Source: Seison nebaliae
Lineage: Eukaryota
Length of the DNA: 48,051 bases
Direction: 5' to 3'
NCBI GenBank assembly: GCA_023231475.1
Contig: JALJEE010002038.1
Location: 1 to 48,051, forward strand
The notes below the pieces were generated by a model. That model worked only from the letters and a program-made list of their open reading frames with translations, ran no database searches and was not told where the DNA came from. Made by a program: the position numbers and the translations under genes. The first letter of the stretch is position 1. Each line of letters starts with the position of its first letter. Shown piece after piece: positions 927-37,237 of this stretch.

Positions 927-2749
927 ATGTCCCGGGAGATTAAAGACCCTAAGCCAATCTCCGTTCCGGCTAGTAGCGTTGATGTTAAAGGAACAAGCTG
1001 TAATGTGTTGAATGAGTTGTTAAACAATTCTCCCTCTTCGTGTTTCGATGATCCGGCTATTGTTGATGGAAGTTGGGATTATCAATTGGGAAAAGGACAC
1101 GAAATCGCCAATGAACATGCTAACTCCATCTCGAACAATTCACTACCATTTTACCCTGAAGCTAATAATGGTTACAATCCTCACCATTTTAATTATGGAG
1201 AGTATATGCCTTATGATTATGGATATGTTCCATATGATTCGAACTCCAATCAATGGTGCTACGATGAAGCACCTATCGTTGAAGATACAGATATTCATGT
1301 CGTGCCAATTGCAGATGAAGTTAGTGGAACTATTATAAATCCGGTTGAACCGAAAACTCCGGTAAATGCTCAACTACCTGGTGGAATGGTAGATGTTAAG
1401 GAGGACGTTGAACGCATCTTACAGAACGATATAGAAATTGAACGATGCAAAAATAAGTTAGATGATATTGACACACTCATGGAACAAATAGAAAAGGATA
1501 AGAATAAAATCAACACTGACCTTGATGTTCTGGTGGATAATTCTCTCCCAATTTTGGAATTAGAAGTTGAGGAACCTGAAGAAGAAAAGAAAGTAATTGA
1601 AGAAGAAATAATTCCAGAGTTTAAATGTTCCTGGACATTATGGAATTATAAACAGGAAAAAGGAAAACAATGGCGTAATTGTTTGAATGAGAAGTGTTCA
1701 TTTGTTGATTTTAAAGTTTATCAGGAAACGACGAAGACTATGGAAACTATTGATAAGTTACCTGTTGGTTGCGACTATATGTTATTCCGAACAGGAATAG
1801 AACCTATGTGGGAGGATGAACGGAATCAGAATGGAGGTCGTTGGTTATTTCAATTTGATCGTTTGATATATGCGAAGGAACCGGAAAAGTTTTTATTTAT
1901 TTACTTCTATTTATTAAATCTTTTTGAAAAATATCTTCTACTTTCAGAATAAATAAGATGTGGAAGGACACTATTCTACATATGATGCGCGATGGTTTTT
2001 GTGCGTGCGACGATTTGAATGGCATCAATGGAGCGGTTGTTCAATCTCGAAATAAATCCATTAAATTAGCTCTTTGGATGGGAAATGCGAAGATCAATTT
2101 GGCTACAGCTGCTATTGGACAACAATGGCCATCAATGCTCGATGTTCAACCCGAACTGATAACTTTCGAAATGTTGAATGACCAACAAAAATATTCGGCT
2201 ACACCTCAACGTCCACAAGTTGCCGCAGTTGCAGCAGCAGCAGCAGCGGCCGCAGGTTTATTTCGTCCTTTAGTTTTCCAGAATGTTCAATTGAACAACT
2301 TACAAACTATCCTAAAAAATAATCGACTAAATAACTTGACACAAAGACCCAATCCACAGCCTTCATTACTGAACACTCCGTTACTTAATCCATTGTTGTC
2401 AAACATTTTAACAGCTAATACTCAAAACACTTCATTACTTAATAATCCATTATATTTGAATAATTTGACAAACATGCTCCTCAACAACAATAATGATGGG
2501 AATTATATGAACAATCTAAATAGTACAATTTCAACTCTCACAAATTTAGTTTCGGCGAAACATGCAAATCATATTGACGAGTCCACCCCAAATACAAATG
2601 CCGATCAATTAGGTGATCGTGGTTGCGGTGGTGATGCATGTGATGATAGCAAAGGAAAAATCGAAAGTATCGTCGACAACATTAGAAATTCTACAGCTGC
2701 AACATCCAATGTTCATTCACGGGAAGGCGATATGACATCGGCAACATGA
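927..2749 (+). CDS. eIF4E: Divergent class I eIF4E-family cap-binding protein with long N- and C-terminal extensions (~587 aa, 2 exons)
   Basis: Exons 927..1888 and 1948..2749; intron 1889..1947 (GTTTTT..TTTCAG) joins EPEK|INKMWKD. Family motifs WTLW, GCDYMLFRTGIEPMWED, GGRW, GAVVQSR and KLALW are present. Confidence 0.93.
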
Positions 2750-3642
2750 AGACGAATAAATTGATCAGAAATCTATCTTTATTTATTTTTTTCCATTTTC
2801 AATTTACTCTATCATATTTGCTTATACTGATCCCTAATGTCAGTAAGAATGGTTCTGAACAGGAAAAATCAATAGTCCATTTATCTCTCCACAATTTTCA
2901 TAAATTGATGACAGAAAATATAGACTATAAATCTCTATTCGATAAATTATTATATTTATTGCTTCAATAAAATTTGATCATATTTAGCAAAATGAATTGT
3001 TTCCTGTAAATCGCTCTTTCTTAACGTTTAATAAATTATCTAACAAATAACTATCATAAATAAATGGGATGATGATTTGAAATAAGAAAACAATCGACTT
3101 TGTTCTTCTTCAATTTTTATTGTCAATACGTAGGACAATTGAAATTTCAACTGGTCGAAATTTCGATAGTTCTCAATTTTGATGGAATTAATTGAATTTC
3201 AATAGAATTGTCAATTATATAAATTTTTTGTTTTTCTGTCTCAAAAAAACCTGTCGATGAATATCAGTTAGATGTCGTTCGATTTTAAACAATTGAATAA
3301 AATTTCGAATAATTCGATAATTGATTTTCACCTTTTTCCTATTGCATCAACGAATTTCGAAACTGGCATTGTCACATAGAATAGTTAAGGAAAACGACAA
3401 AGCGAATATATAATACGATGACTCCTTTCGGAATTGTTTATTAGACGATAACAACAACACATTATATTTCCAACGCCAAATTCCAGAGTAAAAGGCAAAG
3501 TAATAAAAGGAAAGTTTTGTATCGGAATTTTTTTTATTTATATACACATATAGAGAACCCCCACTACGAACGTCAACTGCATTCAGACATTCGTCTTCCA
3601 TTTTCATATATTCAGTTGACATTTAGTCGACCCAATGTCAAG

Positions 3643-3734
3643 GTAAGTTATCTAATATTCTTATTTTAACTACAAAGAAAATTAGTCCCTACCACATATT
3701 TCTTTCAAATTATCTAATAAAAATTACTTATCAG
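3643..3734 (+). other. Candidate 5'-UTR intron with canonical donor (AAG|GTAAGT..TTATCAG)
   Basis: Perfect U1-type donor at 3643, AT-rich 92-nt body, CAG acceptor 18 nt before ATG 3753. No reading-frame test is possible in a UTR. Confidence 0.55.
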
Positions 3735-3752
3735 AATAAATGTTGTATCATA

Positions 3753-5489
3753 ATGAAGTGTTGTCTGATACTTTTATTCTTTGTGGCAATGGCAACTGCC
3801 GAAGATCTCAGCAATTTCCTTCGGTATGAACCGTCAACATCAAATGATTTCCAATTCAATGATACAATTAATTCAGACATGCTCGAAGTCATACAAGACT
3901 TCGGACGAGCTGGTAGTGGTGATTGTGGACCATGTCCAACAGATATGGATTGTGAATTAGATGGTTCAATTCCCGAACCTTACAATGCAATAAAGCAACA
4001 TTATAATAAAAATTCCAATTGTCAATGTGAAAGGAAAGATTATGTGACATTAGATGAAAAATATTGTCAAGATTTATTCGTTATAAAATATAATCTTGAT
4101 TTCTATTCATTAAAAAAAGATGAGCCAACTCCGTCAGCTTTAGAAGAACAAGTTACTCTTTGATATACTTCCTTCTAAATTTTAATTCATTTCTAATCGT
4201 AGTTAAAAGCATTATTAAATATAAATCAAGATATTTATATCAAAGTAAATATTGATCCGAAACCGGTCATTATATCATACGGCGGAGAGGATTATTACAG
4301 AAAATCAGCTGGAATGATCTTCGGTTCTCCTCAATCGTTTTTTTCTCAAAGAGTCACCTCATCATTCTTACTGTTCGAACAACTCATAAAAGACACAGTT
4401 ACTAATAAAAGAACGGTTGTGGAAAATGGAACTTCCTCCGGAGAAGATGTTGAAAAAGCTTTTTTGGGAAACATTTTATTGTCACCTGATGTGAAAGCGC
4501 TTCCAATTACTATTAAACGGGTAACGGTAGTTGGAGATAACGAGAATTGTAAAGTACAAACTCAATCTGGTGAATGTATCGGTTATTATGCTCCACTTCA
4601 TTTTATCAGAATTAATCCTAATTGTCTTTTTTTATTATTAAAGATTATTGTAATGGTAAATATGTTAATAATGAATGTGTTTGTTCCACTCTTTATTATG
4701 GAGAGAATTGCGACAAAACGTATTTACCATATATATTATTAGCCGCCTTTATTGTTGGATTTATGACTTTAATTGGAATTCCCTTACTCGCATGGCGACG
4801 AGGAAAACCTTGGAAGAATGTCGTTAACAGAAATAGATCAGTTGACTTAAGTGGCAGAGATGCATCATCGAATTTTAGCAAAATAATGTTCGGCTCAGTT
4901 AATAGCAGCATACGTAAGAGAAATGTGACAAACATGGAATCTGAGCAGAATCATGAATTATATCAGAATTATGACGAATACTTTACGAAGGAAGATGCAG
5001 AAAGGTTTGAAAAACTCAACACAGTCATCGAAAATACAAAAAACATTGTTAACTTTTTTTGGAAAATAATATTCTTGAAACTTTTTGTGTTAATTTAAAT
5101 AGGACCCAGGTACTGGTGGTGTTATCAATCCCATGTTCCTTACCAGCACTACAAATTTTTTAACTATTCCCAAAATAAGACCGATAGTTCGGAAAGAAAT
5201 GGATGAAACAAATCCAAATATTTTTGCTACTGTCGACATAAAACCAATGTCCAGTTTATTTGGTCATGTTATCAAAGGCAATCACAATGTTCAAGTCCCA
5301 GAATTACCAATGGATTTCTTTAAACTTCCAAGAATCAAATTATCGAGCGACACCGAATTCTCCTTACCATCCACTAGATCATCATTCAGTAATAATATTG
5401 ACAATAATAATGCTGATGAAGATGAAATGAATATTTTCCATCTAAACAACAGATTCTTTCAGCAAAATTACAAACGTTGGAATAGATAA
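3753..5489 (+). CDS. Single-pass type I membrane protein: signal peptide, EGF-like, possible SEA-like spacer, EGF-like, TM, cytoplasmic tail (~522 aa, 4 exons)
   Basis: Exons 3753..4151, 4203..4581, 4644..5047, 5103..5489; introns 4152..4202, 4582..4643 and 5048..5102 keep the frame. Signal peptide MKCCLILLFFVAMATA; EGF end CVCSTLYYGENC; TM YILLAAFIVGFMTLIGIPLLAW followed by RR. The SEA assignment is inferred from architecture only. Confidence 0.8.
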
Positions 5490-6114: not shown

Positions 6115-7072
6115 CTATATTTCTGTTTGCTGTCTAAAATTATAATAATCGATGGAATCTTGAGGACGAATATGTTCTGGAAATGATTCATATGTCCGAG
6201 ACAATTTTTTACTTTCACGTCGTTGCTTTTTCTTATCACGACGTTTCTTGTGTCTTCGACGTTCCTTTTCTATTATTTCATTTTCATCGAAGTCATCATC
6301 GTCGAAAATTCTTTCAACTACGTCCATCGGAATGATTTGCGGTTGACTATATCCACCAGGAACTTAATAAGACATTTTCTACAAGTTTTTTATTATTGAA
6401 AAGCGAATAAACTTTGATATTCATCTTGCATGAATTCTTGTAGAAACTTTTCATCGAGAACGTCATTTTCATCCTCTTGTCTCTCGTCATCATTAGCAAT
6501 GACAATAATCGAATCCTTCCTGATTTTTTGATTTTCATTATCTAGTATCTTCGGTTCGATAATTATGGAATAACAGAAAACTGCAGCTACCAAAGCTAAT
6601 AAAGTTACTTAAAATTCGAATTATAAAAATGAGAGAAATATAATTAATGAGAACTTGCTGATACAATAGCGGCAATTTTACCATTTCGTTTGTTGATTTG
6701 TGAAATTGAATGAATTGGATCAACGCCAATATTAAAAAAAATTTTAGCTGTGAAATTTTCTCCTAATGTGCAAGTGAATATTCCCGAATCCACTAACTGA
6801 ACAGATGCAATCGTTAAGGTCGTTCCATTGGAATAAAAACGAATTTTAAATTCATCATAAGACACTTCTTTACTTGGATGATGCCAAACGATTTCATCGT
6901 TGTCATTAAGAGTGAAATTCTGTAATCGTTCCAAAGGACAATCGAACGTTATCATATCATTCAACTTCGCATGATACATCCAATAATAATCAATTGTTAG
7001 ATCATCAGAAAATTTGATTATTTCTCCTGATGTCCCATAGATGACAAGGAGAATGGTTAAAATACGAAACAT
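6115..7072 (-). CDS. Single Ig-domain type I membrane protein (~286 aa, 3 exons)
   Basis: Exons 7072..6655, 6607..6413, 6362..6115; introns 6608..6654 and 6363..6412. Signal peptide MFRILTILLVIYGTSG; Ig hallmarks FDC..IVW..LTIASVQLVDSGIFTC; splicing completes the TM IAAIVSA|ITLLALVAAVFCYSIII; the tail ends TEI*. Confidence 0.85.
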
Positions 7073-10176: not shown

Positions 10177-12324
10177 GTTAGATTTTTCATTTTTATTTAT
10201 CTTCTTTTTCCAATCTCATCATAATCCATATTTTTCCCTAAAAATATCATTGAATTATTATTTTTAATTGAAGTCTCTTATGAAATATACGACGTGATAA
10301 TAGAAAAATTATGAAATAATAATTTCATTATTCTCTTCGAAAAAAACATTCAATTAACACTTCGGTACTATTTTCAAAAAAAACATAAGAACAGAATATG
10401 TAGTTGAATAGAGAATTGAATAAACTTATCCGTTTAACAACATGTTAAAACTAAACTTTGTTTGTTGAATTCGAAAAATCTATGTTCATTATTCATCTGT
10501 TTCATGCGATATGACGAAAGTCGTAAGCGAACGCTCCATTATGAAAATTTCTCACGCCCAATACCACTTTTTTCACGTATTTGTATCAAACTGAATTTAT
10601 TCGGATCTCTGCTACCTTATTTCCTCACGATCGAGTTTCTAATAAGTGTTATATTTATGAGCAATTCCCTGACGATATTCAGATTTTACGATCAATTTAT
10701 GTGAACGAATATTCTCACAACTAACATTCTTTATTGGAGAAGTAATTAAAATATCAGTTAATCATTCAGTTATTCATCGATCAATATTCAATAAGATTGA
10801 AGTCGATTTTAAGTTTGTCGATATATTTTCATATAAATAATAATTTCGCTTAAGATTTTGACATTTCGGATTAATTTCATATGAAGATTGATAAAGAAAT
10901 AATTACTATTTGTAAAGAAATCCAATAGAATTATTAATAAAAATCTTTATTATAAGTTTCAATTAAATTCAACCGGTTCTCGTAACTACCTCCTCGAGCT
11001 ATCTTGCTATATAATTCATTATCGATTCGATAATATTGAACTTCATATTAAGTACGTTGATTACCAATGGAGTCAGTCAAATTGACAACATTTATCGAAC
11101 GGAGGAATTTGAAGAATGAAAAGTAAATAAATGCAATTTTATATTTTTTTGATATCATGATTGGTAGTGTAGGCATCTATGGAAATATGACTAGATATGA
11201 TGCGGTTCATGATGTACATCGTTTTGGACGTCCACGTACGTATAAATAAAATCTATATTCAAATAAAGATTTCAAATACCAAATGACTTATTGGGAGTAG
11301 TTGTATTTCTAGAGGCATGTGTAGTTTTGTTTATAAAGGTCTTATATGTAGATGTATAATAAAAGTATGACTGGTTATGTACCTGTGAAACGGAATGTTC
11401 GGACATTAAACGGATTGAGGTGGAGGGAGTGAAAATAAATCACGTCGTTATTATCTTTTCTCTCTTATCATTTAGTCTCATATATATCGAAATTTCGAAA
11501 AAAACATCACTGTCATTATCATCTTTTTTGTTGTTTTTTCTTCATTCGTTCCAATGAGGTCTTCTCCATCCGGCCTGTACAGCTTTCTTCGAACCTCTAT
11601 TATGTTGTTGAATGAAAGGGAATTTGGTCTTCTTTTTTTCTTTGAATTTCAGTCGAGCGAAACATTTATGACATCTTAAACCACGTTAAAGTTTCATGGT
11701 CTGTTCAATGTCTTTCATTCGATTTATATCTTCATCTTCATTGTTCTACTTATCAACTAAATAGTTAAGGATGATTGTTGTACTAAATAGAATGATCAAT
11801 AATCGACTGTGTACGTCGTTCATTTAAAGATATAGAGACCATAGTTCTTCCTCTGATAATCGTCTAATCCATTTGTCAAACAACGCCTTAAATATAATTT
11901 TATTTTTCTACATATACATACTCTCAAACACACACAAATCTACGTAACCCGACTAAATAGGATTGTATGATATTTATTTTAATTTAGTTTCATATTATTA
12001 TCATTATTTCGGGAATAAGTCTTTAAATAAAAAAAGCAAAGAAATAAGAATTCTTATTATTCCACGAGCACTATCCAACTAACTGATTTGTTAGTTATTT
12101 GAGCAGTTGTATAATTTTATTCGGAATAATTTGAATGAAAATAAAGAAATAAAGTTTTTTCATGATCAGTTGAATAGAATAGAACCCAATAGAAGGATAA
12201 AAGTAGGTGGAGAATTCATTCGATTTCTACAAGTTTTCTTAAAAATAAAAAAAGCTACAATAAGAAATTGACGGAAATGGAGAAACAATAGAAATTTATT
12301 GCTTTTCCCCAAAGATATCAGTTA

Positions 12325-12520
12325 GGGAGATCGTTTCACGCACTACTACTCGTTCTAACAGTTTTCATGACTAAATTCAATAATAGAATCAGACAATTAT
12401 ACGTTAAACATAAAAATTATCCATCGTCAAAAAATTTTCCCATCCTAAGGTTTAGTTGGATAACCAACCTGCATTTGAACACTCCAAAGAAATATTTTTG
12501 AATATTGAATAATAATAATA
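12325..12520 (+). mobile_element. Possible highly decayed LTR-retrotransposon integrase remnant
   Basis: Peptide scraps DRFTHY and FSHPKV*LDNQPAF resemble the two integrase Asp motifs (DRFTK; FGxP..SDNGPxF) in the expected order, with stops and frameshifts. Confidence 0.25.
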
Positions 12521-15500
12521 TTGACAGTTCGTTCCATAAAATTACCTTTTTGACTTGATTTAATTGAAGTATGTCGAATATAATACTATCGAGTAATGAG
12601 AAGGAGAGTTCGTATGCTTAATGGATAGTTTTCCTTTGCACTTTATGCTGTTGAATAGTTACGTAAGTAGAGATTTATGTTGGGCATTTCCGTCTTGCTT
12701 CTATTCGATTATGTCGAAATTTTGTTGAAAAACATAATTTCAAATTTCCTTTGCCTTTCTTTTACTCCAATTTATCATTTATTGTTTCGTCTACTCATAA
12801 TTATCATTCGGATTTCTAACCAAATAATTTTCTTTTTTTTTTGATTGACGATTATTAGAGAGTGTTAACAGAAAAGTTATTTAACAAATACTTCACTTTT
12901 TGATTTTTACTCCAATTCTTTTTCGAATCGCAACGGTTATTGCTTGTTCATTTAGAAAATATGCGCCTGCTGATAGAGGATTTAGGAAAGTGGTTTATCG
13001 ATGAGGAAATGCACATAATTATGACAGGAAGAATAATACCGAAAAGCAAATGAAAATACCATAATTTTAACTGATTCCTTTTACATTACCATTGCCGATT
13101 TATGAATTCGTTCTATAGTTTTTTTCGTAAAAATTTTAATGAATATTATTATCCACGTACCACATATTCTCATATGCTGATAATGAGAAGCTTGTACAAC
13201 AGATTAGCAAATTGTGCGTATAATTTGCGGGTGTGGAAAGTCAAATAATTATCTGCATAAATTGATTCTTAATAAGAAAGAATAAATGTAAATTATCCAA
13301 TAGATTATTGACTGTCGAATAACGGAATGCAAATAAGAAATTCATCGATGAGAAAGGGGAAAGAATATTCAATTATTCAATTTAATATGCATCAATTCTT
13401 ATATCAATATTATGCAGAGTAATTTTAAAGTCATTCTTGTATATCCTCCTCCGAGACATTCAATGACGAAAGATTAAATTTATTTTAATTATGGAATAAG
13501 AATATCATTTTCATTTACTGAAATTATCTCCAACATCTTCAACATTTGACTAATAAATATTGTAAATTGCTCTAACGAAAATAAAATTGTTGAATTATCA
13601 GAAAAAATTTAATTTTTTTTTATAGTTTGTATATTATAAAAGTAAATATTAGTTCGACGATAATTGCAAATATCGTAATTTATGATGGAACGGCAATTAA
13701 TCATCAAACTGTCTGACAATGTGAGTCTGAGTATTTAATAGATCTTCATTGCACGTGTAATTCAATCGTATTAGCCTGTTTATTTTTTGTTAAACTTTAA
13801 ATTCTGTGAATAGTTCCTCATTATTTTGAACAGGTCTCGATCAATTAGCGGACATTGTATATATTCAAGTGACATTATATAATAATTAGTAGGATGAACC
13901 ACCTCGAAAATGAGAATTAAATGGTTATTGTGATATTTAAATTATGTTGAAGAGTTTATTGAATGAGACGTCTTAATAGAGGAAGAGATATTTCAAGTTC
14001 TTAAGTTTCAGAAAATTTCCTTGAAAATACGAAAAATAAACATTATGTAATAAATTGGATTGAAGGATTTCCTTTTTTATGTATTGGTAATTAAAAGGAG
14101 AATTCGAAATATGATAACAAAAAGAATTATTCATATGAAGAAAGTAATAAAGGAATCTCTCGAATTTGGACTTCATAAATTTTCACCAACGTATTATACG
14201 TGAGCGATTTCAATTCACTCACTCATTCTCTTTCATTCACTACATTCATCTCAACAATGATGAAGACGAATGAATGAAAGAAAATTAAGAGATTGACTTA
14301 CATTCTTCCGGTTTCTACTTCGAACCATATTCCTTTCTCGCATGTACACGTTTGACGACTGAATGTTGAGAAATGAAAACCTGAAGAGGAAATAACATCT
14401 GAGTCTCATCAACAACAATATCCCCAATTTCCACGTTACATACTTTTACATATGACAGAAGAAATATTTCATTCTTTAAATATTATTTGAATGAATCAAA
14501 TAAATATTTACCAAATCTTCCCACCAATTCGTTTTAGCCGTATAACGGTCTAACTAATCGTCTTACTTCCCAATTTTCTACTCCTACGTTGACTAGTCGG
14601 GAACATTGACTTTATGTAATGGTGGCTTTCTTCTCAGTTTTCCTGCTAGAACAATATTTATAAGTCATATTCAATGAACCCCAACTACAGTTCCATTGTT
14701 TATTCTATGGTTATTTTTCAATGAGTTATTGGCTATAAAGTCACAATTGCCGTGCATTGTTTTCATTATTAAAATTGGAAGTTTCCTTTAAAATCTTTCA
14801 GTTACTCCACATCTCCAATGTAATGAGAAATGTTATGAAAGAATGATTGGAAAAAACAAAGTTCATTCTGTTCTGAATAACATCATCAAATGATTATCAT
14901 TCTAAAATTTGACAAGTAGCACGCATAATCATTAAAATTGTTCTTTTGTTATCAAGAAAAGAGTTTGTCAAAGAGCTAATGAGAAGAAAAACAACAAAAG
15001 AACTAAAGAATTGTGATTATAAAAGTTGAATTGTTATTCAGTTGGTCAGAGAATTATGTAACATATTTATCATATTTTTGACATGTTAATTTTATTTCTT
15101 TAAATTACTAAATATTCCACTGGTGAAAGAACATGAGGAAACGACAAGATTATCATCAAACAATTTTCAAGCTAAATTTGCTTTCCTCAAAGTTCTTCTT
15201 ATAAGACTTATGGGTGAAATCCATTAAATATTGAGCTTATTAAATGTCCGGTGTCCAAGTTGGAACCAACTTGTCTCTAGTTCTCTTATATTCATTACTT
15301 TGTAGTAAAAGTTGGAAATGAAGTGACAACTGTGAAGAGAACTATTCCATGATAGAGTAACGCAACTCCATTTAATTCAATTGAATGCTATGTGGCAAAT
15401 GAGTAAAGAGAAAAAATTTTATCAAGTTTCAACTTCTCAAATCGACGTAGGTAAACGAGGAGGGACGACCAGATTAACGTAAAAGAGAAAACTTTAGAGA

Positions 15501-17012
15501 GAAAAAGAGAGTTTTGGTACCGAAAAAAATGTATTTAATAAATAAGTTTAAGGAGATGAAACGGTTGACAATCCACCATTTTTGTATCCTTTAACCTCTT
15601 CCACCTTCCCTCCCACCGCAAAACTTTTCGTCCTGTGGATAACGAAATAACAATAGTGATCGCTCGAAGGAATTTTATTTCTACATGGAAATTATAAAAA
15701 ATATTACAATTGGTCATCATCTTGTCTTCGACGATTACTAATCAACGTTCATATCAATTAACTGAAGTAGAATTATATTGTGTTTGAGAATGTTTTGTTT
15801 ATATTCCATTCATTTGTTCGATCTCTTCTTGCTACCACTCTCACAAATGTAGCTCGCTAGATGTGTGTGTAATAAATAAATAAATAAATTTAATAAAACT
15901 TCTCCAATAGATGGAGGTCGATGTAGTTCGGAAAGAAATGAACGGATGAATTAAAATAATTTTTATTTGTAGGAAAAATAATAATTATTAATTATAAATG
16001 GAATTGAACGATATTTTGTTTATGTTCTATTCGATTCATAAGAAATTCTTTTCATCTATTTCATTTTATCAGATGGAAATCGACATTTATATTGCCGATT
16101 ATTTCCTTCTATTTAATTTCGACATAAATGTATTCCTCCTATATATGAGCTACACGATTTTTATGGGAAAATATTAATTAAATGAATTTTCTTCCATTTC
16201 GAAAATAGTGGAATGAAGATAAATTTAATTTTCGAAGTAAATTTTTTTTGAGAAATTTACAATTGTACCAGGAGAGACATTTGTACCTTTAAAACGTAGG
16301 AGAATGGATAAATGATTAATAAAATCAATGTTTCTAATACTTTGCATTGGATGATAGATGTAATGAGTCGTTAAATGTAAATAAATTGTTTGATAATAAT
16401 GTAACCGGGACGACATACACATAAATGATTTGACTTCTGTCACATATTCGAAAATGGAGAATAGTTAATTCTTTCCTTGCCAATACGGGAAATGTAGTTA
16501 TAATGAAATGAAATATTCTCATTTTATGTCTTTCTTGCCTCTATGTAAAGTGTTTAGATCGTGCTATTATCACAAATGACAAAGTTAATTAAGGAAATTT
16601 AGTTTCGAAATTGAATCGATTCCTGCCGAATTAATGTAATCGAATTATTGTCAATCTGATTACATAAAGAGTCGATGGTAATTAGAACGATGAAAATAAG
16701 CTTCTTTTTCTAACAATCTCTTCTAAGTTTATTCTATTAAATCTCCATCAAGTACGATGCTAATTCAGTCAACTATGGTTTCCATTTTTTTCTCCACCTT
16801 AATCATCAACAGGATATATGCGCACTACATCGAACTTATTCATACTGAATCATCAATCGTTGCATTGACTATTCTATTGGAAATCAAATGTATCGTGCTA
16901 CTTTTTCTCTAAAGTTCTCTAAAGTAAACGAAATTGTATTGAACAGTTGAACAAGAAACTTTCTTTTCCTTTCAAAGAAATCGACCAATTCTTCCTTTTT
17001 TGGGGGTTTTGT

Positions 17013-17471
17013 TTAGTAAACATTACCACTAACAACAACGAGAGCAACATCATCAACAAAGTCGATAATAATACAAACAATAATTGTAATGAAGTTTCTG
17101 CATTCGGAGCGATATATCCATTTTTTTGTTCGATAAAACTTAATCGGAGAATAATGAACATTTTCAATTCATCCAACAAATGTTGCGAACGTTTTCCAGT
17201 TGAAAAGTATGATTATTTTTCTCATTAATAATTTGCCTGCTGACACTCGAAACTTTTTTCTCCGATTGGTCTACCAGAGTGATGGTACAACCGTTAATCA
17301 CAATACGTATCGTGTTATTGGCGATATGGTTTATTGGGTACACATCGATCTAATAAATAATAGAAGACGAATGAGTTTTGTTCAAAATGATAAACAATTA
17401 ACCATAGAATAATTCCATTTAACTAGAATCGCCAGATTGATAGACAGATAGAAGAATAAAAATTTGTTCAT
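17013..17471 (-). CDS. Candidate small secreted protein (~117 aa, 3 exons) nested antisense in the inferred ASPP long intron
   Basis: Exons 17471..17403, 17349..17191, 17138..17013; introns 17350..17402 (GTTAAT..TTAG, 53 nt) and 17139..17190 (GTTCGC..TAAG, 52 nt). Signal-like N-terminus MNKFLFFYLSINLAILVKWNYS. The 3' end is uncertain. Confidence 0.55.
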
Positions 17472-18345
17472 CTTTATGTTTCGTGTAAGTGAAAAGTTGT
17501 GTTTGATTAGAAGATGTCAGAAATGTTATATCATTTCCTTCGATAGTTCATTTATCTTCATCTTCTCCTTTTTCACTCGTTAAATTGAAGTTTACTATCG
17601 ATTATTTGAAATGGTTTTAATCTATCGCCTGTCGGATATTTACTATCCTTCTCATCATTAACTTCCTGTGAGTTGGTATAATTTTAATTTAAGACATTTA
17701 TGTTTGGAAATGTTGTTTTAGAAAAGAAATTTTTAAATTCTGTATCAGAACTGGTGAATTTAATGAAAAGTTAATGAATGAATAATATAGTTGAGTTAAT
17801 CATTAGTAATGTTTCGAAGTGATCGTTTTGTACTGAAGAATTTTTAAATTATTAAAGTTGATTAATGAATAAATAATCAAATATCATTAAACTACTTCTA
17901 CTGCTTCGTCATTATTATCATCTTCTCACTTATCGTTAAGTTGTTCTTCTTTCTTTATTTACTTTTCATTTCCACACCGATTTCCGTCCATCATAACGAA
18001 TTTGTTGTCATCGAATCTAGTTCAACTGATATTGATCTTGTTTCTTATTTCTATACAGTTCTTCTTCATTTCTTTTTCTTCTGCGACTAATGCTTATACT
18101 ATTCTCTATACTGTACAATTCCACTCTGAAGAAAAGAGTAAGATACGACGTTTAAAATGAATGGAAAAGTAATTTTGTGATTTATTTTATCTGATCATGA
18201 TGATCTTGATAACCTTCAGCTTCTATCAATATTTTGTTAATAAATCAAAAAAATCGATATGGAAATAAAATTTTAATTGTAAAGAGAATTTTAATTAAGG
18301 AAATTTTAATTAAGTCTAATTAATTTTAATTTTATCCATTTGAAG

Positions 18346-24300: not shown

Positions 24301-25518
24301 CGTATTCAGAAGAAGAATGCTACAATTGATCCGCATGCTCTCTTATTAGATGGTGCTGTAGAAGGTGAATTAACAACTGTTGTTGATAATTGTATAATTA
24401 TAGGATCTGTAGAAGCATCGAAACCAAATGATGAAGGTTCATTTTTTATCGTTTTCTTATTTTAATTATTCATTTTCTTTTATCTAATTAAGGTATTACT
24501 GCGTTACATAATGCGGTTTGTGCTGGACATGATAATATTATTCGATGGTTGATATTTGAAGCTGGAGTAGATGTGAATGTATGTGATGTAGATGGATGGA
24601 CGCCTCTACATTGTGCTGCATCGTGCAATGCAACTGATTTGGCAGGAATGTTAATTGAATCTGGTGCATGCTTATGGTCACGTACTTCAATCGACGATGA
24701 GATGCCAATCCATAAATGTGAATTGAAAGAAATGGAATATGATAAATGTTATAAATATTTGAGAGGTTTATTTTCCATTCCTTCTTTATCTCTAAAGTTT
24801 ATTAATGTTATTTTGTAGAAATGCAAACACGAATTGGTCGAATGAATAATCGAAAAGTTTATGCGATTTTCGATCATCAATCCAATGAGAACGACGAACT
24901 TAATGTTCACATTAATGACGAACTTACCGTTCTCTCTTATGGAGATGAAGAACATTTGGAGACATTAGAATCGGATGAAACTCTACTTTTGAATGATGCC
25001 AAATGGTGGAAAGTGAAGATTACCAATTCCTATGAAGATAGTCGAAATGGTCAAATTGGATTAGTTCCTCTCAACATTCTTGCCGTTAAACATTTCTCTC
25101 TTTATTCTACTCTTCACTTTATTTACTTTAAACATGAAAATTTTAGTTATATCCAAGAATTATGCCACAAACATTATCAGATAATCATCGAAAAGCATTT
25201 TTTATCAACACCAACGGAAGAGATTTACGTCCACATTTATCCTCCACGAACATCGACGACATTTCAATGAATAAGAAAGAGAACTGGTTATCATCACCAT
25301 CAGAAAATGACGAGAATACGAGTAATGCACCGTATATTCCATCGGGAGACCGCTTGATCAATACAACAACAACAACACCAACAACAATAACGAATAATAC
25401 ATCTTTAAAGAAAACAGGAAATGTTGACATTTCAATGAAAATGGAAAATAACAATAGTACGAGTAATGAATCAATAAGATTTGATCGATCTCCATACAGT
25501 CAGGAATGCAACGCTTAA
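18346..25518 (+). CDS. ASPP: ASPP family (apoptosis-stimulating protein of p53 / PPP1R13) ankyrin-SH3 protein, >2300 aa, 5' end upstream
   Basis: Exons 18346..24436, 24493..24765, 24819..25084, 25147..25518; introns 24437..24492, 24766..24818, 25085..25146. Splicing restores DPHALLLDGAVEGE..PNDEG|ITALHNAVCAGH..DGWTPLHCAASCN, then an SH3 domain ending GLVPLNILA|LYPRI. There is an N-proximal coiled coil and a long N/S/Q low-complexity middle. Confidence 0.93.
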
Positions 25519-27152: not shown

Positions 27153-27292
27153 AATTCTTTCAAATTGAATTAGAAAAAATAAGAGAAAAGTGAAAATAAT
27201 TCCGATTCTCTACAAGTTTTCACTATTTTTTTTATATCCAAATTATAAATTTATTTTAGTTCCAATTTATCAGTTAACAATCAGTTTTACTA

Positions 27293-29534
27293 ATGCCAAA
27301 AATGTTATTAAGCAATTATTCAAGAAATAAAAATAATGTTAGTTTGGAGAAAACGTCAAAACTGCCAAACAAGCCGTTTGTGAAATCTAAAATCAATCGT
27401 TCAGAGACAAGATCATCTCAAGAAAATCTTCCTTATTCAAATCAGTTCTATGGGAATTATATTCAAACTAATTCACTAATTGATAATGATTCCAATAACA
27501 ATACGAATCATGACAAGAAGATGTACGTTTATGATGAAATATTTCCTTCTCGAGGATCGAGTTCGACGAAAGTAAAAGATTCTTTAAATTTATTGAATGA
27601 AGGAATAGAAAAATGTCAGAAGGAAGTTAAACAATTGAGATTAATTCGACAGTCCGCAGATCGGTTTGTAGTAAAGCAGTTATTATGATCTTTATCTAAA
27701 CATTCAATCTTGACAATATTTTATACAGTTTCGAAGATGATAATGTTAGTTCAAATTCAAAAACCGTAAAACGTTCTTATGAATCAGAAAGTGCATCTAA
27801 TCAATATGGTATTCCTAGATCGCCATTGAGAAACGAATATTATTCTCAATACGAAGTTGAAGGTTTTAAATTCTTCTTCTCTAAAAGATCCGAGAAATTT
27901 TTTCTATATATTTTCAAGACAGCGCAAAACCGACAACAGCTGCTGCTCAATATTACACAACATCTTATTTACCTTCTGATCTAGATAATAAAGTATATCC
28001 ATCCTCCAACATAAAAGAAACTAAACGTTTCACTACACCTAAAGATTCGACGATGAAAATGATGGCTAAAAATTATCAATTTACTAAAATGCCCACCGAA
28101 CTCTATGAAACCAGTAGTGAAGAATACTCTTCCACTGGAAAAACTCAGCAACGTACTAATACAAAACCGACTCAGAATATTATTGAAACGCCGACGCAGA
28201 GAATTGTGGGAAATCCGATGGAACATATAATTGTCTATCCTTCCGAAAAACCGGAAAAAGAGCGAACGGAGAATTATACACGACAACAGACGGAGAGTAT
28301 TGCTCGAAAACCGATGGAAAATCTTACTAGAAAACCGAAGGAAAACCTTACTAGAAAACCGAAGGAAAACCCTTCTAGAAAACCGACGGAAAATCTTACA
28401 AGTAGACAGACAGAAAATCTTACTAGAAAACAAACACCAAATTTTTCTAGTAGACAGACGGAAAATCTTTCTGGAAATTTAATTCCTAGTAGACAGACAG
28501 GAAATTTTAGTAGAAAACCAACGGAAAATTTTATAAGAAAAAAAACAGAGAAAACGACATCGCGATTAATAGATAATACGACTAGAGAATCAATCGACAA
28601 TACTTCTCAACAACCAACGGAAAATACTATGGAAAGAGCCATCGAAATTATTAAGAGTAGAACAGATGATAAAAGTAGAAATTTAACTATGGAAAGAACG
28701 AACAATAAGACATCGGAGAAAAATTATTCAAAAACCTTAGAGACGTCAAATAATAAGACATCAGCTGGTCCAATATCAAAAAAAGTAAGCTCGACTGTTG
28801 TTTATGAAAAGATGATGCATTACACCTCTCCAAATGGACTTATTGGGACTCCAAATTCAAACAATATACAAAGTTATTCGAAAAAACATATCCTTCTTGA
28901 TCTTCCATTATCTGGAGTAACAGTAAAAGAAAGTGATTATTCCCCACAAGAAACTGTTAACATGCCAATTATTAAGACACCAGATGTAGAAGATAAAAAT
29001 TCTATAAAAAATTCTGAACCCACAAAACCATACGAGAATACTCATATCGATGACTACGAATCAAAACGATTCTATGAAACAACAACTCGAAAAATAAGTA
29101 AAATTACACAACTTTCTGATGGAAGTTCAATTTCAACTTCTCCTCTCTACTCATCAACTTCCTCTTCTCAATATAGTAGCACTTCATATCATCCAACTAC
29201 AACAACAAAGTTTCCTGCGTGTAAACGTCACAAACATCAATACATTCAATGTGATTTTGACGTAGTGTGTGGTGGTGAAGAGTCAGAGCATAATGATATA
29301 TCAGTTCGAGTTCCACATGAACCCATAAAACAAGTAATTGTGGAACGAGCTCCCAAAGAAAAAATCGTTTATCAAAAATCGCCTCCATCACATCAACCTA
29401 ATCATACCACCGAGTTTTATACAGTCATCTTAATGTTATGTCAAATATTTAGATCGTTCTGTTCAATTCTCCTCAATTTAATAGGATTGGCTTATTGTTT
29501 TTTTCGGATGAGAAAACTGAAATATTGTCCTTAA
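27293..29534 (+). CDS. Hypothetical S/T-rich repeat protein with hydrophobic C-terminus (3 or 4 exons)
   Basis: Exons 27293..27663 (or ..27678), 27729..27862, 27919..29534. Introns 27664 (or 27679)..27728 and 27863..27918 link the 131-aa and 493-aa ORFs in frame. A possible extra intron 29497..29566 would extend the CDS to 29658. Confidence 0.75.
28276..28640 (+). repeat. Coding 24-bp tandem repeat (ENLTRKP[K/T]-like octapeptide), roughly a dozen degenerate copies
   Basis: Units such as gaaaatcttactagaaaaccgaag / gaaaaccttactagaaaaccgaag / gaaaacccttctagaaaaccgacg, decaying towards both ends. Confidence 0.9.
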
Positions 29535-31034: not shown

Positions 31035-31221
31035 TTACTGATAATTATTTCTATATGAATCATCCGTATATGATGAAACGACATGATAACTGGTATTGCT
31101 ATTGTTGTTGTAATTGTTGCCATGTGAAATGTATTGTGGTTGTTGATGATTACTATCATTCTGATTTGTTCCATTCATATTATAACGACTTGAATAATTT
31201 GATTGATTATTTCCAGATATC

Positions 31222-31253
<32 letters not shown>

Positions 31254-33326
31254 ACCGTTTTGTGATAATTGGAAATTTCGATTTCGTGCACGACTAATTA
31301 ATCGATTTCCATTATAATCAGGAACTGATCGTATTCCATTATTAATTGGAATATCATAATGATCTTGTTGATTGTTTTCAATGTTATTTCCATCACGATG
31401 CATCGATGAATTAGTTGCATCGACACTCAACGAATGATTTACTGATGGATTGGATGATGATTGTTGGGAGACATGTTCATCATAACGAGCATATCGTCTA
31501 CTTATATTTCTTTTAATTCGATTATTCTGTTGCTGTACATTATTTTGAGTTGTTTGGTGATATGAATTATTCGAGTGATAATGACTTCCATTATCGTTCT
31601 GTGGAGAAGGGGATGATTTGGTTAATGAACGATTGGATGACACATGAGGATATTGTTCATCTTCAGCGAAATCAGCGACAACGAAACCGTCAAGCACATA
31701 TTGATTGTTGAGATTATTAAGAGAATGTTCACTATTTCCTCTACGAACATCGGGAAATTCGACGTCACCACTCGCACGCTCGTATTCTGGTTGGTTGTTC
31801 CTCAACGAGTACAAACAATCCATCGTAAAATGGCGGTAGTTGAGGAGATGAGATCTCAGACCTTTGTAACAATCGAGAAATTCTTGTCGTTTTATGGCAT
31901 ACAAGACAGAATAAGGATCCGAAGCACGAGCTAATTTATGGAGAGCGATAGCTAAACCTTGTTCGATAACACTCATCCTCTTGCCCATCAACGACATGGC
32001 ACCACTATGATAGACTTTGATGACGACTTTATCTTTTCCTATGGGAATTGTCATTTTCGCTCCCGAATGTATCATCGGTTCATATGATACTTCTTGAGGA
32101 TAAAATTTGAGTAATAATTTCAAATCGACCGAACTAGACCAAGGTACTTGAGCCACACCAAGAACATTAACTATTCGATATTTGGTGAATCTGGCCGAGA
32201 ATAGATTTCGCTTCTTACCGATTCGATAAATGTATTTGGCGATACGTCTCGATGCTTTGAAAGCCGATTCTTCTGATACGCAGCCAGTACATGTGGCGGA
32301 ACCACTGGCAAATACAGCCATTGTCGCTTTCGGATCTCTCCAACGAATTGTACATCTCGCTTTGTCTCGAGCATATTCAATGTTTGCAGCATTCATCGTG
32401 AGATCATATAAGCTGATTTTCGTGTCAAGATTGAATGCAGTGACAACATTCTCTACACGACACTCTGTCATTGGCATTCGTTTCACTTTCTCATTGTGGA
32501 CAATTCCTTTGAACTCTTCCACTTCTTTGTGAGTGATTTGCACTTTACTGAATTGGTGGAGAATTGATTCCAGTTCTTGTCGACGAAAGTTACTTAGGAA
32601 TTCATCTTTTGCCCATTTACTTTTATTCTCTGATCGATTATTAATTTCTTGAGAATATGATGATATCGTTGGCGATTGGGATTGTGGAGGTAGAGATCGT
32701 TGTTGATGATATGACATATCATATGAATAACAATTATTATTATTCGTGTTGTTGTTATTATTATTATGAATTCCATTGGAATAATTTGAATTTGTTCGTA
32801 TCAAATAATTCCCATTTCTTTCATTAATATTCGAATTATGATTGTCAAATGTATCGATGGAATTTGGTTCAGGTTTCATTTGTTGGATATTAGAAAGATT
32901 TTTTGGAGGAAAAGAAATGATTTGTATTAAACTATTTGAGGAATATTGATTCTTCTGAAATTGTTCATCATAATAAGAATTATCTACAGAACGTTGTTGT
33001 TGTGGTTGTTGTTGCTGTTGTATCTGATGATGACGATTATTATTATGTTGTTGTTGTTGTTGATGATGTGATGGATAATTTGAATGATTTATGTAATTAT
33101 GTTGTTGTTGTTGTTGATGGTGATGGTGGTGGTTATTGTTGTGATGTGGTTGAAATTGACTATGTCGATTATGATTATTATAATGGTAATTATTTACATG
33201 TTCCATTGGACTTGATGATTTTGTTGATATGTCTCCATCATCGATAATGCGATAACTTACATTCTCAGTATGAGACAAACCATTGCGAATTTCAAGATAT
33301 TGTGGTTGATGATTGGATGTGCTCAT
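31035..33326 (-). CDS. TBPL1: TBP-related factor of the TRF2/TLF (TBPL1) type, with an intronless CDS and long N/Q/H-rich termini (763 aa)
   Basis: Two TBP repeats, NVVTAF..NIEYARD..PKATMAVFASGSATCTG and RIVNVLGVAQVPW..SYEPMIHSG. The short EYxRD loop, NVLG..PW and YEPxxH match TRF2/TLF rather than TBP. Confidence 0.88.
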
Positions 33327-34139
33327 GATGATAACGAAGAAATTCGAGTGGAGATGTGTTGAATGAAAATATTTAATTAGACAAGGGGGACAACTCTTAG
33401 AACATGTCCGATCGTTCTACCCCGTCGTTATACAGAAAGATATATGTCAAAAAATTTTCTAGAACTAATTCATGAAAAAATTAAAATTTATCAAATTCTT
33501 CCTCCATTTTATACAACATTCTCATTCCACGCATGAGCACAAAAAAAAAGAAGTTAATTCAACAAAATATTTTTTCTCTTCCTAATCATCGTCTGTGACA
33601 TCACACCAAATGACAACATAATGAGATGAGTAAATAAATTTATTCAAAAAATAATAATTGGGAAGAATTGAAGGAACTATTGGATTTGTTTAAATTTTAT
33701 TTAATTAAGGATCAAGTAGGAGTAATTTCATTAATTTATATCGTCCAGACAGTTTCCACTCTCCTCCTATTCTCTTCACTCCCATTACATGCCCAACAGC
33801 AACATGTCGTTGCAATTTGACGGATCAGAGTACGTACTCTTCCATGCAACATAATAATCAATTTTTTTCTTATTCCACATTTTTTATGGGATCAAATTTT
33901 TTTTCTTTCTAATAATGTTGTTGTTTAATTGATTTGTGTTTCCGAGAAAGATATTGACTTCTAAAACTTCCCAGAGTGTTCTTGTTACCAGTTAGATAAT
34001 TCTTAAATTCCAATTTCAAGCTTTGGATATTGAATGACCAATTTATTCCACATTTTCATTGTGAAATGTGTTCTTATGATAGTTATGTATAAAAAAAAAA
34101 CGTAAAGCTAACTGTGGAAGAAAGTCATCTAATTCTACA

Positions 34140-35842
34140 ATGAATAAGGAGATTGCTCGAATATTTCAAATTTTAGAAGAAAATGATCTCAATGAATTCA
34201 TAGAGTTATTCTAATTAATTTTTCACATTAAAACTAATTTAGCGGCATTCATCTCTTCATCCTTCTCCTCTCACACAAACACACATACACACACATGTGC
34301 ACTTAAATATCTAGTTGTATGATTCATAACAAATTATGTTTCATTAAGAGAAATAAAGAGAATAAATGGAATATCCATAAGCTTCTCCTTAACACTCACA
34401 ATCAGATTGATACGGATTCAATAAATAAATTATGTCGTTAACAATTACCATAATTACGCCCACCATCAATTTAACATTTATTTTAATCAAATTTCTCAAC
34501 TAATCGAAAGATGGACAAAATGTACGAATTTCAAACTGTTCAAAATGGCAGTTCGATACTCACAAAGTTGAGGAAATGACAATTGGTCATTTTCTAAAAG
34601 AAAAATGGAAAAATAGTTCAAATGATCGATACTATTGTAAAGACTGGCATTTATTCAAGTTTATTCATTGTTCTCATTATTTAATTTAAAAGTATTCTTA
34701 AGAGAATTACCAAATTTAAATTTGTATGAGTTACCAGAAATTCTGAAAGAAGATTATCTGAATAATTATTCTCTCAATTTTCCTAACGGATCCGATTATC
34801 GTTTCGTTTATTTGGGAGAAGAGAGAACATGGACTCCTTTGCATCATGACGTGCTTGCATCATATAGTTGGTCAATAAACTTAAGTGGAAATAAAAGATG
34901 GTTATTTATAATCGAAAGAGGAACGTTAAAAAATGTGAAGGATGTTAGATCGATAATGAAATGTGAGAATGAATATTCGAAATATAAGAATATTTCTTAT
35001 CGATTGGAATTCATTGAATTATATCAATGTCTAATTTTAGATATGATTCAACCAGAAGATTTCTTTGTCTTTGTTCCTTCTCGACTTTATCATCAAGTTC
35101 ATAATTTAGTTAGTTTAAATTTTTATATAAATTTTTTTTTATAATTTTTCCTAATAATTTCTTTCTTTAAATTTCTTGTGATAAATCTGAACTATATATT
35201 TTTCTTGTAATATAAGACGGATGTATTATCAGTCAATCATAATTGGTTCAATCAATATTCGATCGAAAATGTTCTGAATTATATCATCGACACCTATGAG
35301 AAGAAAATCAAACCAGAATTGAAACACTTACCTTCATTTCCATTCAAGCGATTGATGGAACAAGTTTATTCTAAACAATTTGAAACGTTTGTCAAATCTT
35401 TTTTGTAAAGGAATTGCTATCGAATCTATTGGCGTTCGATCTTATTCAAATTGTCGATTTGATTTCTTTTAATATCAATCATAAGTTTCCCAATCTAAGA
35501 TTACCATCCGAAATAAAGAAATCGATAAAATTGAAAAATTTATGGGAATATCAACATTTTAAATTATTTGAATTTTGGATTAGATTATCATTATTGGATA
35601 GTAAACAATCGAATTTAGAACTATCCAAATTAATCAATTTAATTACAACAAAAATTCTTCTCAAAGATGATTATTTGATAATTTTGATATTTTATTATTT
35701 TTGTCAACATCATTTATGGAAGGACAATACCGTTGAATTAGTGACTTTTCATCATGAATTGTTAGAGATTCATGAAAAGATCGATTTAAATGAATTAAGA
35801 ACGTTCCATAAGACGTATTTGGAGAGAAGAACATTTTTTTAA
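34140..35842 (+). CDS. JMJD4: JmjC-domain 2-oxoglutarate oxygenase JMJD4 (~439 aa, 6 exons)
   Basis: Exons 34140..34204, 34315..34436, 34511..34658, 34703..35108, 35217..35363, 35411..35842. Motifs YCKDWHL, DYRFVYLG, WTPLHHDV..SYSWSIN..GNKRW, VPSRLYHQVHNL|TDVLSVNHNWFN; the HxD..H metal triad is intact. Confidence 0.92.
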
Positions 35843-36251
35843 GAATAAAAATAATTTTATTTTTGTAAATTCTTAATTGTGGTGGACGTATTTTGTAAAA
35901 GAAAAAAGAATAATTAAAAATGAATAAAATGGGACAAATGTTAAAAGAAAGATAATCGGATAGACATATAAATGTATCTCTCCGAAAAATGTATCTTCCA
36001 AGAAACGAGGAATGAGAATGAAAAAGTTCTATATAAACTCTTTGTTGTCTTTCAATGAACTATGTTGAAAAATTTGAATAGAATGAGAATAAATGTAGAA
36101 ATTCTTACCAAAATTATTGAAAATAATTTATACTGTAATCTGTAAATAATTTCGACGGAATTGATAAATTTGATGTTCTGCTCTCAAAAGAGAACTTTGA
36201 AAATTTTTCATAAAATATTTTCCTTCATTCTTCGAAATCATTTCACCGATT

Positions 36252-37207
36252 TCACAATTTGCCTGAGCAGATCAAACATGCAAATAAGATGCACAATATC
36301 TGCACGAGAATGATACCAGCGGCCACGCAAGCCATTAATATTTGTTTCGAGGCAATACCATCTAGAATAACAGGAATGCATCCTCGAGCACCATTGTTCT
36401 TCGTTGCGTCCACACCATCATTACAATCGTTTCCACTGATATCTTTCTTACAACAACTCATAGGAAACTCGTCAGCATCTTCCACTTTCTCATAAGCGAA
36501 CGTACTGTAATCCACACCTCCATTAACACCACAACATTGGGCTGATGCTTGAAGAATATCCCAAACGTTCTCTGAATTTGCCCCTTCATCTTTCTTATAA
36601 GTTGCTTTCAATGATTTCACAAACAACTCCTTCAATGGTTTACCTTCACCCTTCATCATAACTATTGCGACGATAACAACAATTAACTGCACTAATAATA
36701 TCAGACTGACTGATACAATATACTGACAAAGAAAAAATTATTTAATTAATTCCTTTCATACTTGGATGTTTCAATTTACTAACGAGAATTAAACAAATTC
36801 GGTTTCCGGTACATGCGCCACAACACCCAAGCAACGCGATACAACACATTACGGAACCAAAAATAATTAAAACAAGTGTGGCACTTTTGATGATGTCCAA
36901 TTCCATAAGTTCTAATGAAAGAAGAGAAATGATGGATTGATGTTAAAGTTTTTAGGAAACTTTCGATTTTTTCTGTATCAGGTATGAAATTCATAATGCC
37001 TCGTATCAATTTGAGCTCCTTGTCAAATTTTAGATAAATCCCAACTGCCAATATTCCACCACCCGCTAACTACAAATTGAAAATGATGGTATTATTGTAA
37101 TTTAATTTTAGTCTAACGAAAAACACGATATTGATCAATATGATGATCAGTTTGGCTAGACAGCCACATCCACCTTTACCTTCACCTGAACCTGTACCCT
37201 TACCCAT
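36252..37207 (-). CDS. Tetraspanin (~265 aa, 4 coding exons)
   Basis: Exons 37207..37118, 37069..36961, 36911..36784, 36722..36252; introns 37070..37117, 36912..36960, 36723..36783. Four TM segments plus LGCCGA, CCG, PMSCC and GC motifs. Confidence 0.93.
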
Positions 37208-37237
37208 CGCACTGATTATTACTCACAAAAAAAGTAT

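Follow-up and report, generated by a model that had tools for sequence, protein, structure and literature searches.

Introns beginning with GTT throughout a Seison nebaliae contig point to a shifted third donor base

Spliceosomal introns with transformed 5' splice sites (donors) have been described in print mostly from intron-poor microbes. In Entamoeba, whose genome is AT-rich, reduced and intron-poor, donors follow a strict motif, GUUUGU(U), with 88–90% reading GUUUGU, and the arm of U1, a small nuclear RNA (snRNA), has co-evolved to ACAAAC; whether prior intron loss is needed for such a change is framed as an open question in that paper (Roy and Bowser, bioRxiv 10.1101/2022.06.08.495308). 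In the likewise intron-poor Saccharomycotina yeasts, one donor position, +4, switched between A and U lineage-wide, tied to the loss of METTL16 and SNRNP27K, with U1 and U6 sequences unchanged (PMC10581693). Among animals, the major spliceosome of Fritillaria borealis accepts a changed splice code in which GT/AG is abandoned in 95% of introns, with U2AF paralogs and altered N6-methyladenosine (m6A) (PMC13326754), and myxozoans and Dicyema japonicum, which are host-associated, have introns of 22–27 nucleotides (nt) whose splice signals are reduced to a plain AG and, in the donor, to three bases that carry information (PMC13644364). Here, we analyze a 48,051-nt stretch of DNA (contig JALJEE010002038.1 of assembly GCA_023231475.1, positions 1 to 48,051; hereafter the window) from Seison nebaliae, an epizoic animal belonging to Rotifera/Syndermata. 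Its compact genome measures ~44–46 Mb and is missing ~36% of BUSCO metazoan genes, and two lineages have been reported for the species (PMC8351084). All 21 introns found in this window start with GTT and end with AG.

These introns lie in seven genes on both strands, with up to five introns per gene, and were placed by combining transcripts, deposited proteins and reading frame: five by transcript alignments, 13 more by deposited proteins and three by reading frame alone (Table 1). Supplement 2 of PMC8351084 supplies the transcript evidence: it tabulates GMAP alignments of Trinity transcripts that derive from messenger RNA (mRNA) reads mapped with STAR. Among the 19,906 rows listed, at least seven name this contig, one of them a repeat and one a short piece without splicing, with the others representing five minus-strand genes; plus-strand junctions were taken from proteins or frame. 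Two rows are spliced and fit the window base for base, namely 35867-37252 (M856 D61 M128 D49 M109 D48) and 5976-7312 (M387 D50 M195 D47), and the five introns that they define, those on the minus strand in Table 1, have zero positional slack, even of one base. Because the STAR aligner favours GT-AG but leaves +3 unscored, this transcript-defined set is unbiased at +3.

Exons of the window match deposited S. nebaliae proteins at 98–100% identity (tetraspanin P0001, JMJD4 P0002 and ASPP-family P0052), and P0053, which belongs to no known family, is a 100% match to an exon of the gene at 3789-5489. Exact mapping of these four proteins yielded GTT at 16/16 introns (three from P0001, five from P0002, four from P0053 and four from P0052), and the three tetraspanin junctions were the same in transcripts and in P0001 (3/3). 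A gene finder trained on this genome, which may lie behind the deposited models, would favour the majority motif. Homology provided another view of these junctions. When donors were scored on a profile built from 31 JMJD4 homologs outside Seison (from 49 fetched, filtered to lengths of 300–650), GTT came top at 5/5 junctions, with margins ranging from 0.5 bit over a GTC at 34437 to 22 bits over a GTA at 34659. The spliced end of the ASPP-family gene gave a single uninterrupted match to ASPP2/iASPP across three short introns (E 6e-44), and the spliced tetraspanin protein, with intron phases 0, 1 and 0, aligned to CD9 and TSPAN7 without gaps across both phase-0 junctions. At 1889, placed by frame, the donor is the only open GT within -60/+45 nt (one GC donor is also frame-compatible), and the Pfam IF4E model aligns over 2-83 and then over 86-153 across the junction. 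Nearby canonical in-frame donors were passed over for GTT at tetraspanin 36783, as defined by transcript, and at JMJD4 34659. Finally, three sequencing runs (X1, X2 and X4) showed flat depth and zero spliced joints over 18000-37900, and hence behave as DNA.

The original prediction, made from the letters of the window, had listed 19 introns beginning with GTT, at coordinates that all read GTT (20/20, counting two candidate donors for one intron), and had taken the genes to be animal, as they are. Sixteen of the 19 are now placed by an independent source (five by transcripts and 11 via P0002, P0052 and P0053), so that the altered donor code proposed for this contig is backed by transcript-derived junctions. 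The deposited proteins added two introns to that list, 10177-18345 and 4898-4948, both GTT. As had also been claimed, a purine at +3 is absent (0/19, and 0/21 overall), +5 G is rare (3/19) and the last exonic base varies (A 10, G 4, C 4, T 1). The description of the introns as "tiny" needs correction: they are short, at 44–110 nt, with one annotated at 8.2 kb. As mechanisms, the prediction had offered a U1 variant or a protein-driven definition of the introns, and both are weighed below.

Past GT, clear information is present in these donors only at +3. All donor and acceptor statistics given here with n=19 omit the 10177 and 4898 introns and take donor 27679 for the 27664/27679 site. Against a small-sample bias of 0.13 bits, information content is 0.36 bits at -1, 1.54 at +3, 0.30 at +4, 0.03 at +5 and 0.47 at +6, and the bases observed are A 10, T 7 and C 2 at +4, A 8, T 6, G 3 and C 2 at +5, and T 12, C 4 and A 3 at +6. 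The acceptor is also relaxed, which goes beyond the original prediction: the -3 base is A in nine introns, two of them transcript-defined, T in seven and C in three. In 19/19 cases, the acceptor is the first AG to occur 40 nt or more past the donor, and an AG at 23–38 nt is skipped in 7/19. Interiors average 5% G and 48% T, compared to 18% G and 29% T in exonic decoys built by the same rule, among which few fall within the true composition range (GTT 13/247, GTA 10/164). The 3' ends of the introns are T-rich, interrupted by A, and a loose (C/T/A)TRAY motif occurs 8–45 nt from the intron end in 13/19, at no fixed distance and as counted without a control set.

Beyond this contig, short gaps sampled from the GMAP table (two of its 400 parts, long gaps omitted) span 42–92 nt with a median of 49 (n=72), and 64 of the 72, including all five on this contig, are typed as deletions and eight as introns. 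As a genome-wide proxy for weak donors, these deletion calls were judged weak and set aside, since poor acceptors could equally produce them. Row orientation in the table, among the rows listed, is antisense for 7,879, sense for 214 and indeterminate for 11,810, and this antisense excess would fit GT-AG polarity genome-wide.

Base composition does not readily produce such a pattern by chance. T follows 42% of all GTs in the window, and T makes up 47% and A 32% of intron interiors (in another set of 19, which includes the 10177 and 4898 introns and leaves out the 27293-29534 gene). Frame-compatible alternative donors read GTT in 9/23 cases, a count that omits the eIF4E, Ig and 27293-29534 genes. 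At a T frequency of 0.47, 21/21 GTT has a probability of 1.3e-7 and the transcript-defined 5/5 alone one of 0.023, while one-sided 95% lower bounds on the GTT share are 0.87 and 0.55, respectively. For an animal, the expectation lies below the composition figure because of the usual motif, agGTaagt. The GTT donor pattern is a real feature of this contig, and we consider it very probable that donor position +3 has shifted from purine to U genome-wide in S. nebaliae.

These introns have the GT...AG termini of U2-type introns (21/21), and five of them are absent from assembled transcripts. They do not display the U2-type donor consensus, GTRAGT with G at -1 and/or +5, since +3 is a purine in 0/19. 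Two other donor types were considered and rejected: the U12-type donor, RTATCCTTT, had zero matches, with T at +3 in all introns, and shifted-register donors of the GUUAAGU type, in which the consensus moves by one base and G stands at +6, were excluded by +6 G in 0/19. Nor do the usual animal donor classes, AG/GU and /GURAG (PMC11347140), fit, as G is absent from both -1 and +5 in 12/19 donors. The contig shares with the standard animal motif the GT...AG ends and a weak preference for A at +4 and T at +6 (PMC13644364), but differs in its +3 base, in its -1 G (4/19) and +5 G (3/19) and in its AAG acceptors (9/19). With Entamoeba it shares +3 U (21/21) in GT-AG spliceosomal introns of an AT-rich, reduced genome; however, +4 to +6 are nearly free, GTTTGT occurs in at most 1/21 donors instead of ~90%, and the genes are those of an animal, with 21 introns in seven genes in contrast to the intron-poor genome of Entamoeba. 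Myxozoans and D. japonicum also have short introns, although at 22–27 nt and not 44–110 nt, and keep the ancestral purine of "GTa" (PMC13644364), F. borealis gave up the GT/AG ends that Seison keeps while changing +3 (PMC13326754), and the lineage-wide switch in Saccharomycotina affects +4 instead (PMC10581693).

Our search of the open-access literature, confined largely to the text of papers, found no animal with +3 T donors, in line with the absence of a precedent assumed earlier, although a sequence logo of Seison or another animal may be in print. Likewise, it returned no description of Seison splice sites, nothing linking Seison with the spliceosome, and no donor data for bdelloids, monogononts or acanthocephalans. 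In nematodes and Oikopleura, GTT donors form a sizeable minority, so the unusual point in Seison is near fixation together with the loss of +5 G. In the S. nebaliae genome paper, splice sites are mentioned once, in a methods line (PMC8351084).

A divergent relative offers a further comparison. Runs X2 and X4 contain low-depth contigs that share ~81% identity with exons of JMJD4 and tetraspanin. Their alignments break off within three donors after four to six bases (at +4 or +6), at 34662, 35114 and 36778. The 108-nt JMJD4 intron is ~83 nt long in these contigs, a length change that no exon would tolerate. The end points of these alignments suggest that GTT may be conserved at the three donors. 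Low-depth divergent contigs also align at 90% identity or more over non-coding gene ends at 25696-25891, 26011-26030 and 33879-33898, with nearby coding exons at ~81%, and these segments are possible conserved regulatory elements.

We tentatively attribute the +3 shift to a change of U1 snRNA nucleotide 6 to A. The introns would be ordinary major-spliceosome introns defined across the intron, with a U1 arm 5'-ACUAAC-3' that would pair with +3 U. An A at nucleotide 6 would pair with U alone, whereas the usual pseudouridine takes A or G, and we propose that +3 is nearly invariant and +4 to +6 are loose because this A accepts only U. The remaining specificity would come from an interior rich in U and from a length of no less than ~40 nt, probably via RNA-binding proteins. 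The faint +4 A (10/19) and +6 T (12/19) leanings are those of a canonical U1, such that one U1 change explains the consensus. Complementarity to the canonical arm averages 5.3 of 11 positions, with 5/19 donors under five, and rises to 6.3, with 2/19 under five, when nucleotide 6 is changed; in human, pairing matches average 7, with a threshold of 5–6 (PMC8283771). Entamoeba, with its altered U1 arm, provides a precedent for such a change (bioRxiv 10.1101/2022.06.08.495308). The fuller scenario, in which the U1 arm was rewritten in an intron-rich Seison, ancestral introns moved by the thousand from +3 purine to U, and a few GTAAGT introns in 5' untranslated regions (5'-UTRs) may still be served by a second U1 of the standard kind, is one we hold more cautiously still. 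Two phase-0 introns of the tetraspanin gene sit at what we take to be the positions of ancestral introns 1 and 2; if so, old introns were converted, not replaced. Six phase-0 introns are ancestral to tetraspanins, and the small loop is where derived introns that break the frame are concentrated (PMC2650405).

Several observations weigh against this U1 explanation. All intron data come from one contig, and no Seison U1, U6, U5 or spliceosomal protein was seen in these data; an Rfam scan of the window gave 0 matches and no snRNA. Changing the arm adds one match automatically, by construction. Furthermore, relative to intron composition, any excess is marginal or absent for +4 A (p 0.05), for +5 G (p 0.10) and for +6 T (p 0.12), and GTTAGT donors number just 2/19; together with the 12/19 donors without -1 G or +5 G, this makes pairing look weak under any arm. 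Most lineages with shifted donors have retained a standard U1: candidates in 236/240 fungal genomes have an invariant arm (PMC10581693), Thecamonas and Micromonas likewise keep a standard U1 despite shifted donors, and in Fritillaria snRNA sequences are conserved while proteins and modifications changed (PMC13326754). GTAAGT is also undepleted in the window (24 copies vs 15.4 +/- 4.0 expected, with 3/100 shuffles as high), and two copies, at 3643+ and 37342-, stand where 5'-UTR introns could lie, 100–150 nt upstream of start codons and at the head of candidate introns of typical composition (Table 1). Judged by their sequence, these two could be 5'-UTR introns with a standard donor. Elsewhere, GTAAGT at 33260- and 26168- is left unspliced in transcript-covered sequence, despite an AG 50 and 58 nt on. 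In favour of the shift, ten GTRAG sites are found unspliced in 7,878 nt of transcript-covered exon; this number is about what composition predicts by a hand estimate, and is hence a weak hint that canonical donors go unused.

A search of metagenomes for U1 genes that carry A at nucleotide 6 returned 16 loci, of which one had an Rfam U1 match (L007:1-126, minus strand, 96 bits). This copy is without the normal 5' arm, lies beside a 912-codon frame resembling a long interspersed nuclear element (LINE), and was rejected as what looks like a 5'-truncated retrocopy, probably from an animal unrelated to Seison.

Alternatively, the genome-wide shift may be real with standard snRNAs, if recognition of GUU and of an interior rich in U and poor in G falls to altered proteins or RNA modifications (U1-C, LUC7, TIA1-type binders, Prp8 or m6A patterns), and length together with scanning for the first AG accounts for the remainder. 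We regard this as somewhat unlikely, although much of the anatomy agrees with it: donors hold almost no information past GUU, interiors are set apart from exonic decoys by composition, so that only 13/247 GTT decoys resemble true introns, and the first AG at least 40 nt on is used throughout. Printed donor shifts have, moreover, more often occurred without snRNA change (PMC10581693), and the many missing BUSCO genes make the loss of a factor plausible. However, GTT filters decoys no better than GTA (13/247 vs 10/164), so that, under a protein route, it is not evident why U should have replaced the ancestral A; GTa is retained in other animals with reduced spliceosomes (PMC13644364), and Entamoeba, a printed lineage with fixed +3 U, did change its U1. 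A constraint acting after U1, at the U6 ACAGAGA box or the catalytic centre, in which +3 U would pair or stack with U6 (by a G-U pair or a changed U6 base) and the relaxed acceptor -3 would reflect the same active-site change, appears improbable. It draws on the statement in the Entamoeba paper that +3/+4 U could pair better with U6 (bioRxiv 10.1101/2022.06.08.495308), and on both third positions being atypical here (+3 T 19/19, -3 A 9/19). Yet +5 G, the main U6 pair, is found in just 3/19 donors, the ACAGA box is invariant in 240 fungi (PMC10581693) and kept in Entamoeba, and AAG acceptors may follow simply from first-AG scanning in AT-rich DNA.

It is very unlikely that the contig is an outlier, or that the pattern stems from AT bias and annotation habits with genome-wide donors mostly GTR or mixed. 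Such a view would point to the single contig, to the 13/21 introns resting on deposited models and three on frame alone, to the modest departure of the transcript-defined set from composition (p 0.023) and to the two candidate GTAAGT introns. The pattern nonetheless recurs in seven genes that are unrelated and occupy both strands, a bias toward AT would also have promoted the ancestral A (32% A in interiors), and transcript or homology junctions agree with the models wherever both exist (tetraspanin 3/3; JMJD4 5/5 top, one by 0.5 bit). Introner bursts spread unusual intron ends, and the narrow length range could bring to mind recent copies of such a mobile element with GTT at its end. This we consider highly improbable: pairwise local scores of the 19 interiors equal those of shuffles (mean 16.6 vs 16.3; maximum 28 vs 30), 13/19 junctions have no repeated base on either side, and two tetraspanin introns presumably occupy the ancestral positions given above.

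Table 1. Introns and candidate introns of the window, with the evidence that places each
Positions	Strand	Feature	Gene	Placement
1889..1947	+	intron GTTTTT...CAG, 59 nt	eIF4E-family, 927-2749	frame only; Pfam IF4E continuous across
3643..3685	+	possible exception GTAAGT...TAG, 43 nt	upstream of start codon, gene 3789-5489	sequence only
4152..4202	+	intron GTTACT...TAG, 51 nt	3789-5489, no known family	P0053
4582..4643	+	intron GTTATT...AAG, 62 nt	3789-5489	P0053; GTA/GTG alternatives 6-33 nt upstream also keep frame
4898..4948	+	doubtful intron GTTAAT...CAG, 51 nt	3789-5489	P0053 only; in frame, stop-free, 39% GC
5048..5102	+	intron GTTAAC...TAG, 55 nt	3789-5489	P0053
6363..6412	-	intron GTTTAT...AAG, 50 nt	Ig-domain membrane protein	transcript alignment (M387 D50); no slide
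6608..6654	-	intron GTTCTC...AAG, 47 nt	Ig-domain membrane protein	transcript alignment (M195 D47); no slide
10177..18345	+	annotated long intron GTTAGA...AAG, 8,169 nt	ASPP-family, 9940-25518	P0052 only
24437..24492	+	intron GTTCAT...AAG, 56 nt	ASPP-family, ankyrin region	P0052
24766..24818	+	intron GTTTAT...TAG, 53 nt	ASPP-family	P0052
25085..25146	+	intron GTTAAA...TAG, 62 nt	ASPP-family	P0052
27664..27728	+	intron, donor 27664 (GTTTGT) or 27679 (GTTATT), acceptor CAG	27293-29534	frame only; GTC donor at 27652 also fits
27863..27918	+	intron GTTTTA...AAG, 56 nt	27293-29534	frame only; sole in-frame GT donor
34205..34314	+	intron GTTATT...TAG, 110 nt	JMJD4, 34140-35842	P0002; sole in-frame donor
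34437..34510	+	intron GTTAAC...AAG, 74 nt	JMJD4	P0002; GTC donor 3 nt upstream near-equal on homolog profile, 234.2 vs 234.7
34659..34702	+	intron GTTTAT...AAG, 44 nt	JMJD4	P0002; beats GTA alternative by 22 bits
35109..35216	+	intron GTTAGT...AAG, 108 nt	JMJD4	P0002; best of 5 by 18 bits; ~83 nt in divergent relative
35364..35410	+	intron GTTTAT...AAG, 47 nt	JMJD4	P0002; sole in-frame option
36723..36783	-	intron GTTAGT...CAG, 61 nt, phase 0	tetraspanin, 37207-36252	transcript alignment and P0001; in-frame GTA/GTG donors 4-43 nt away unused
36912..36960	-	intron GTTTCC...TAG, 49 nt, phase 1	tetraspanin	transcript alignment and P0001
37070..37117	-	intron GTTAGA...TAG, 48 nt, phase 0	tetraspanin	transcript alignment and P0001
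37297..37342	-	possible exception GTAAGT...TAG, 46 nt	upstream of tetraspanin start codon	sequence only; transcript row stops at 37252, short of site

The window has a GC content of 32%, carries three further genes without introns, and includes eIF4E, Ig, TBP, RING and reverse-transcriptase Pfam domains. The eIF4E-family protein (927-2749, plus strand) has ~590 amino acids, far above a typical eIF4E, with a long acidic N-terminal and an Asn-rich C-terminal extension. In the gene at 3789-5489, the exonic-looking 4898-4948 intron call may be an annotation error. The ASPP-family protein (9940-25518, plus strand) is annotated at 2,412 amino acids, including a single exon of ~6.1 kb of low-complexity sequence, and its gene has an annotated first intron of 8.2 kb in a genome of 50-nt introns. 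An intronless TBP-family gene (31035-33416, minus strand) has two TBP domains in a 793-codon frame rich in Asn, Gln and His, and is covered by a single unspliced transcript row, 30138-33574. At 29748-29937, a short multi-copy repeat shows a ~five-fold rise in depth and many variant contigs in three DNA runs. By eye, two similar AT-rich blocks (near 42330 and 43275, within 42300-43340) lie ~950 nt apart upstream of the intronless RING gene. The interval 44354-47443 holds decayed mobile elements of higher GC. One is a reverse-transcriptase frame (RVT_1) that is broken, and another, at 46862-47443, is a frame that by eye resembles a fragment of a MULE-type transposase, with no Pfam match.

The third intron base is among the most conserved donor bases past GT, and remains A even in myxozoans and Dicyema (PMC13644364). 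An intron-rich animal in which it has switched would directly test whether intron loss must precede such a change, and the Seison case would show how a spliceosome finds introns with about three informative donor bases. In practice, splice tools trained on human sites may misread the S. nebaliae genome. If the rewriting of the U1 arm is true, it would be, to our knowledge, the first compensatory change of a core snRNA and the splice code found for an animal, and one that took place without the massive intron loss of Entamoeba.

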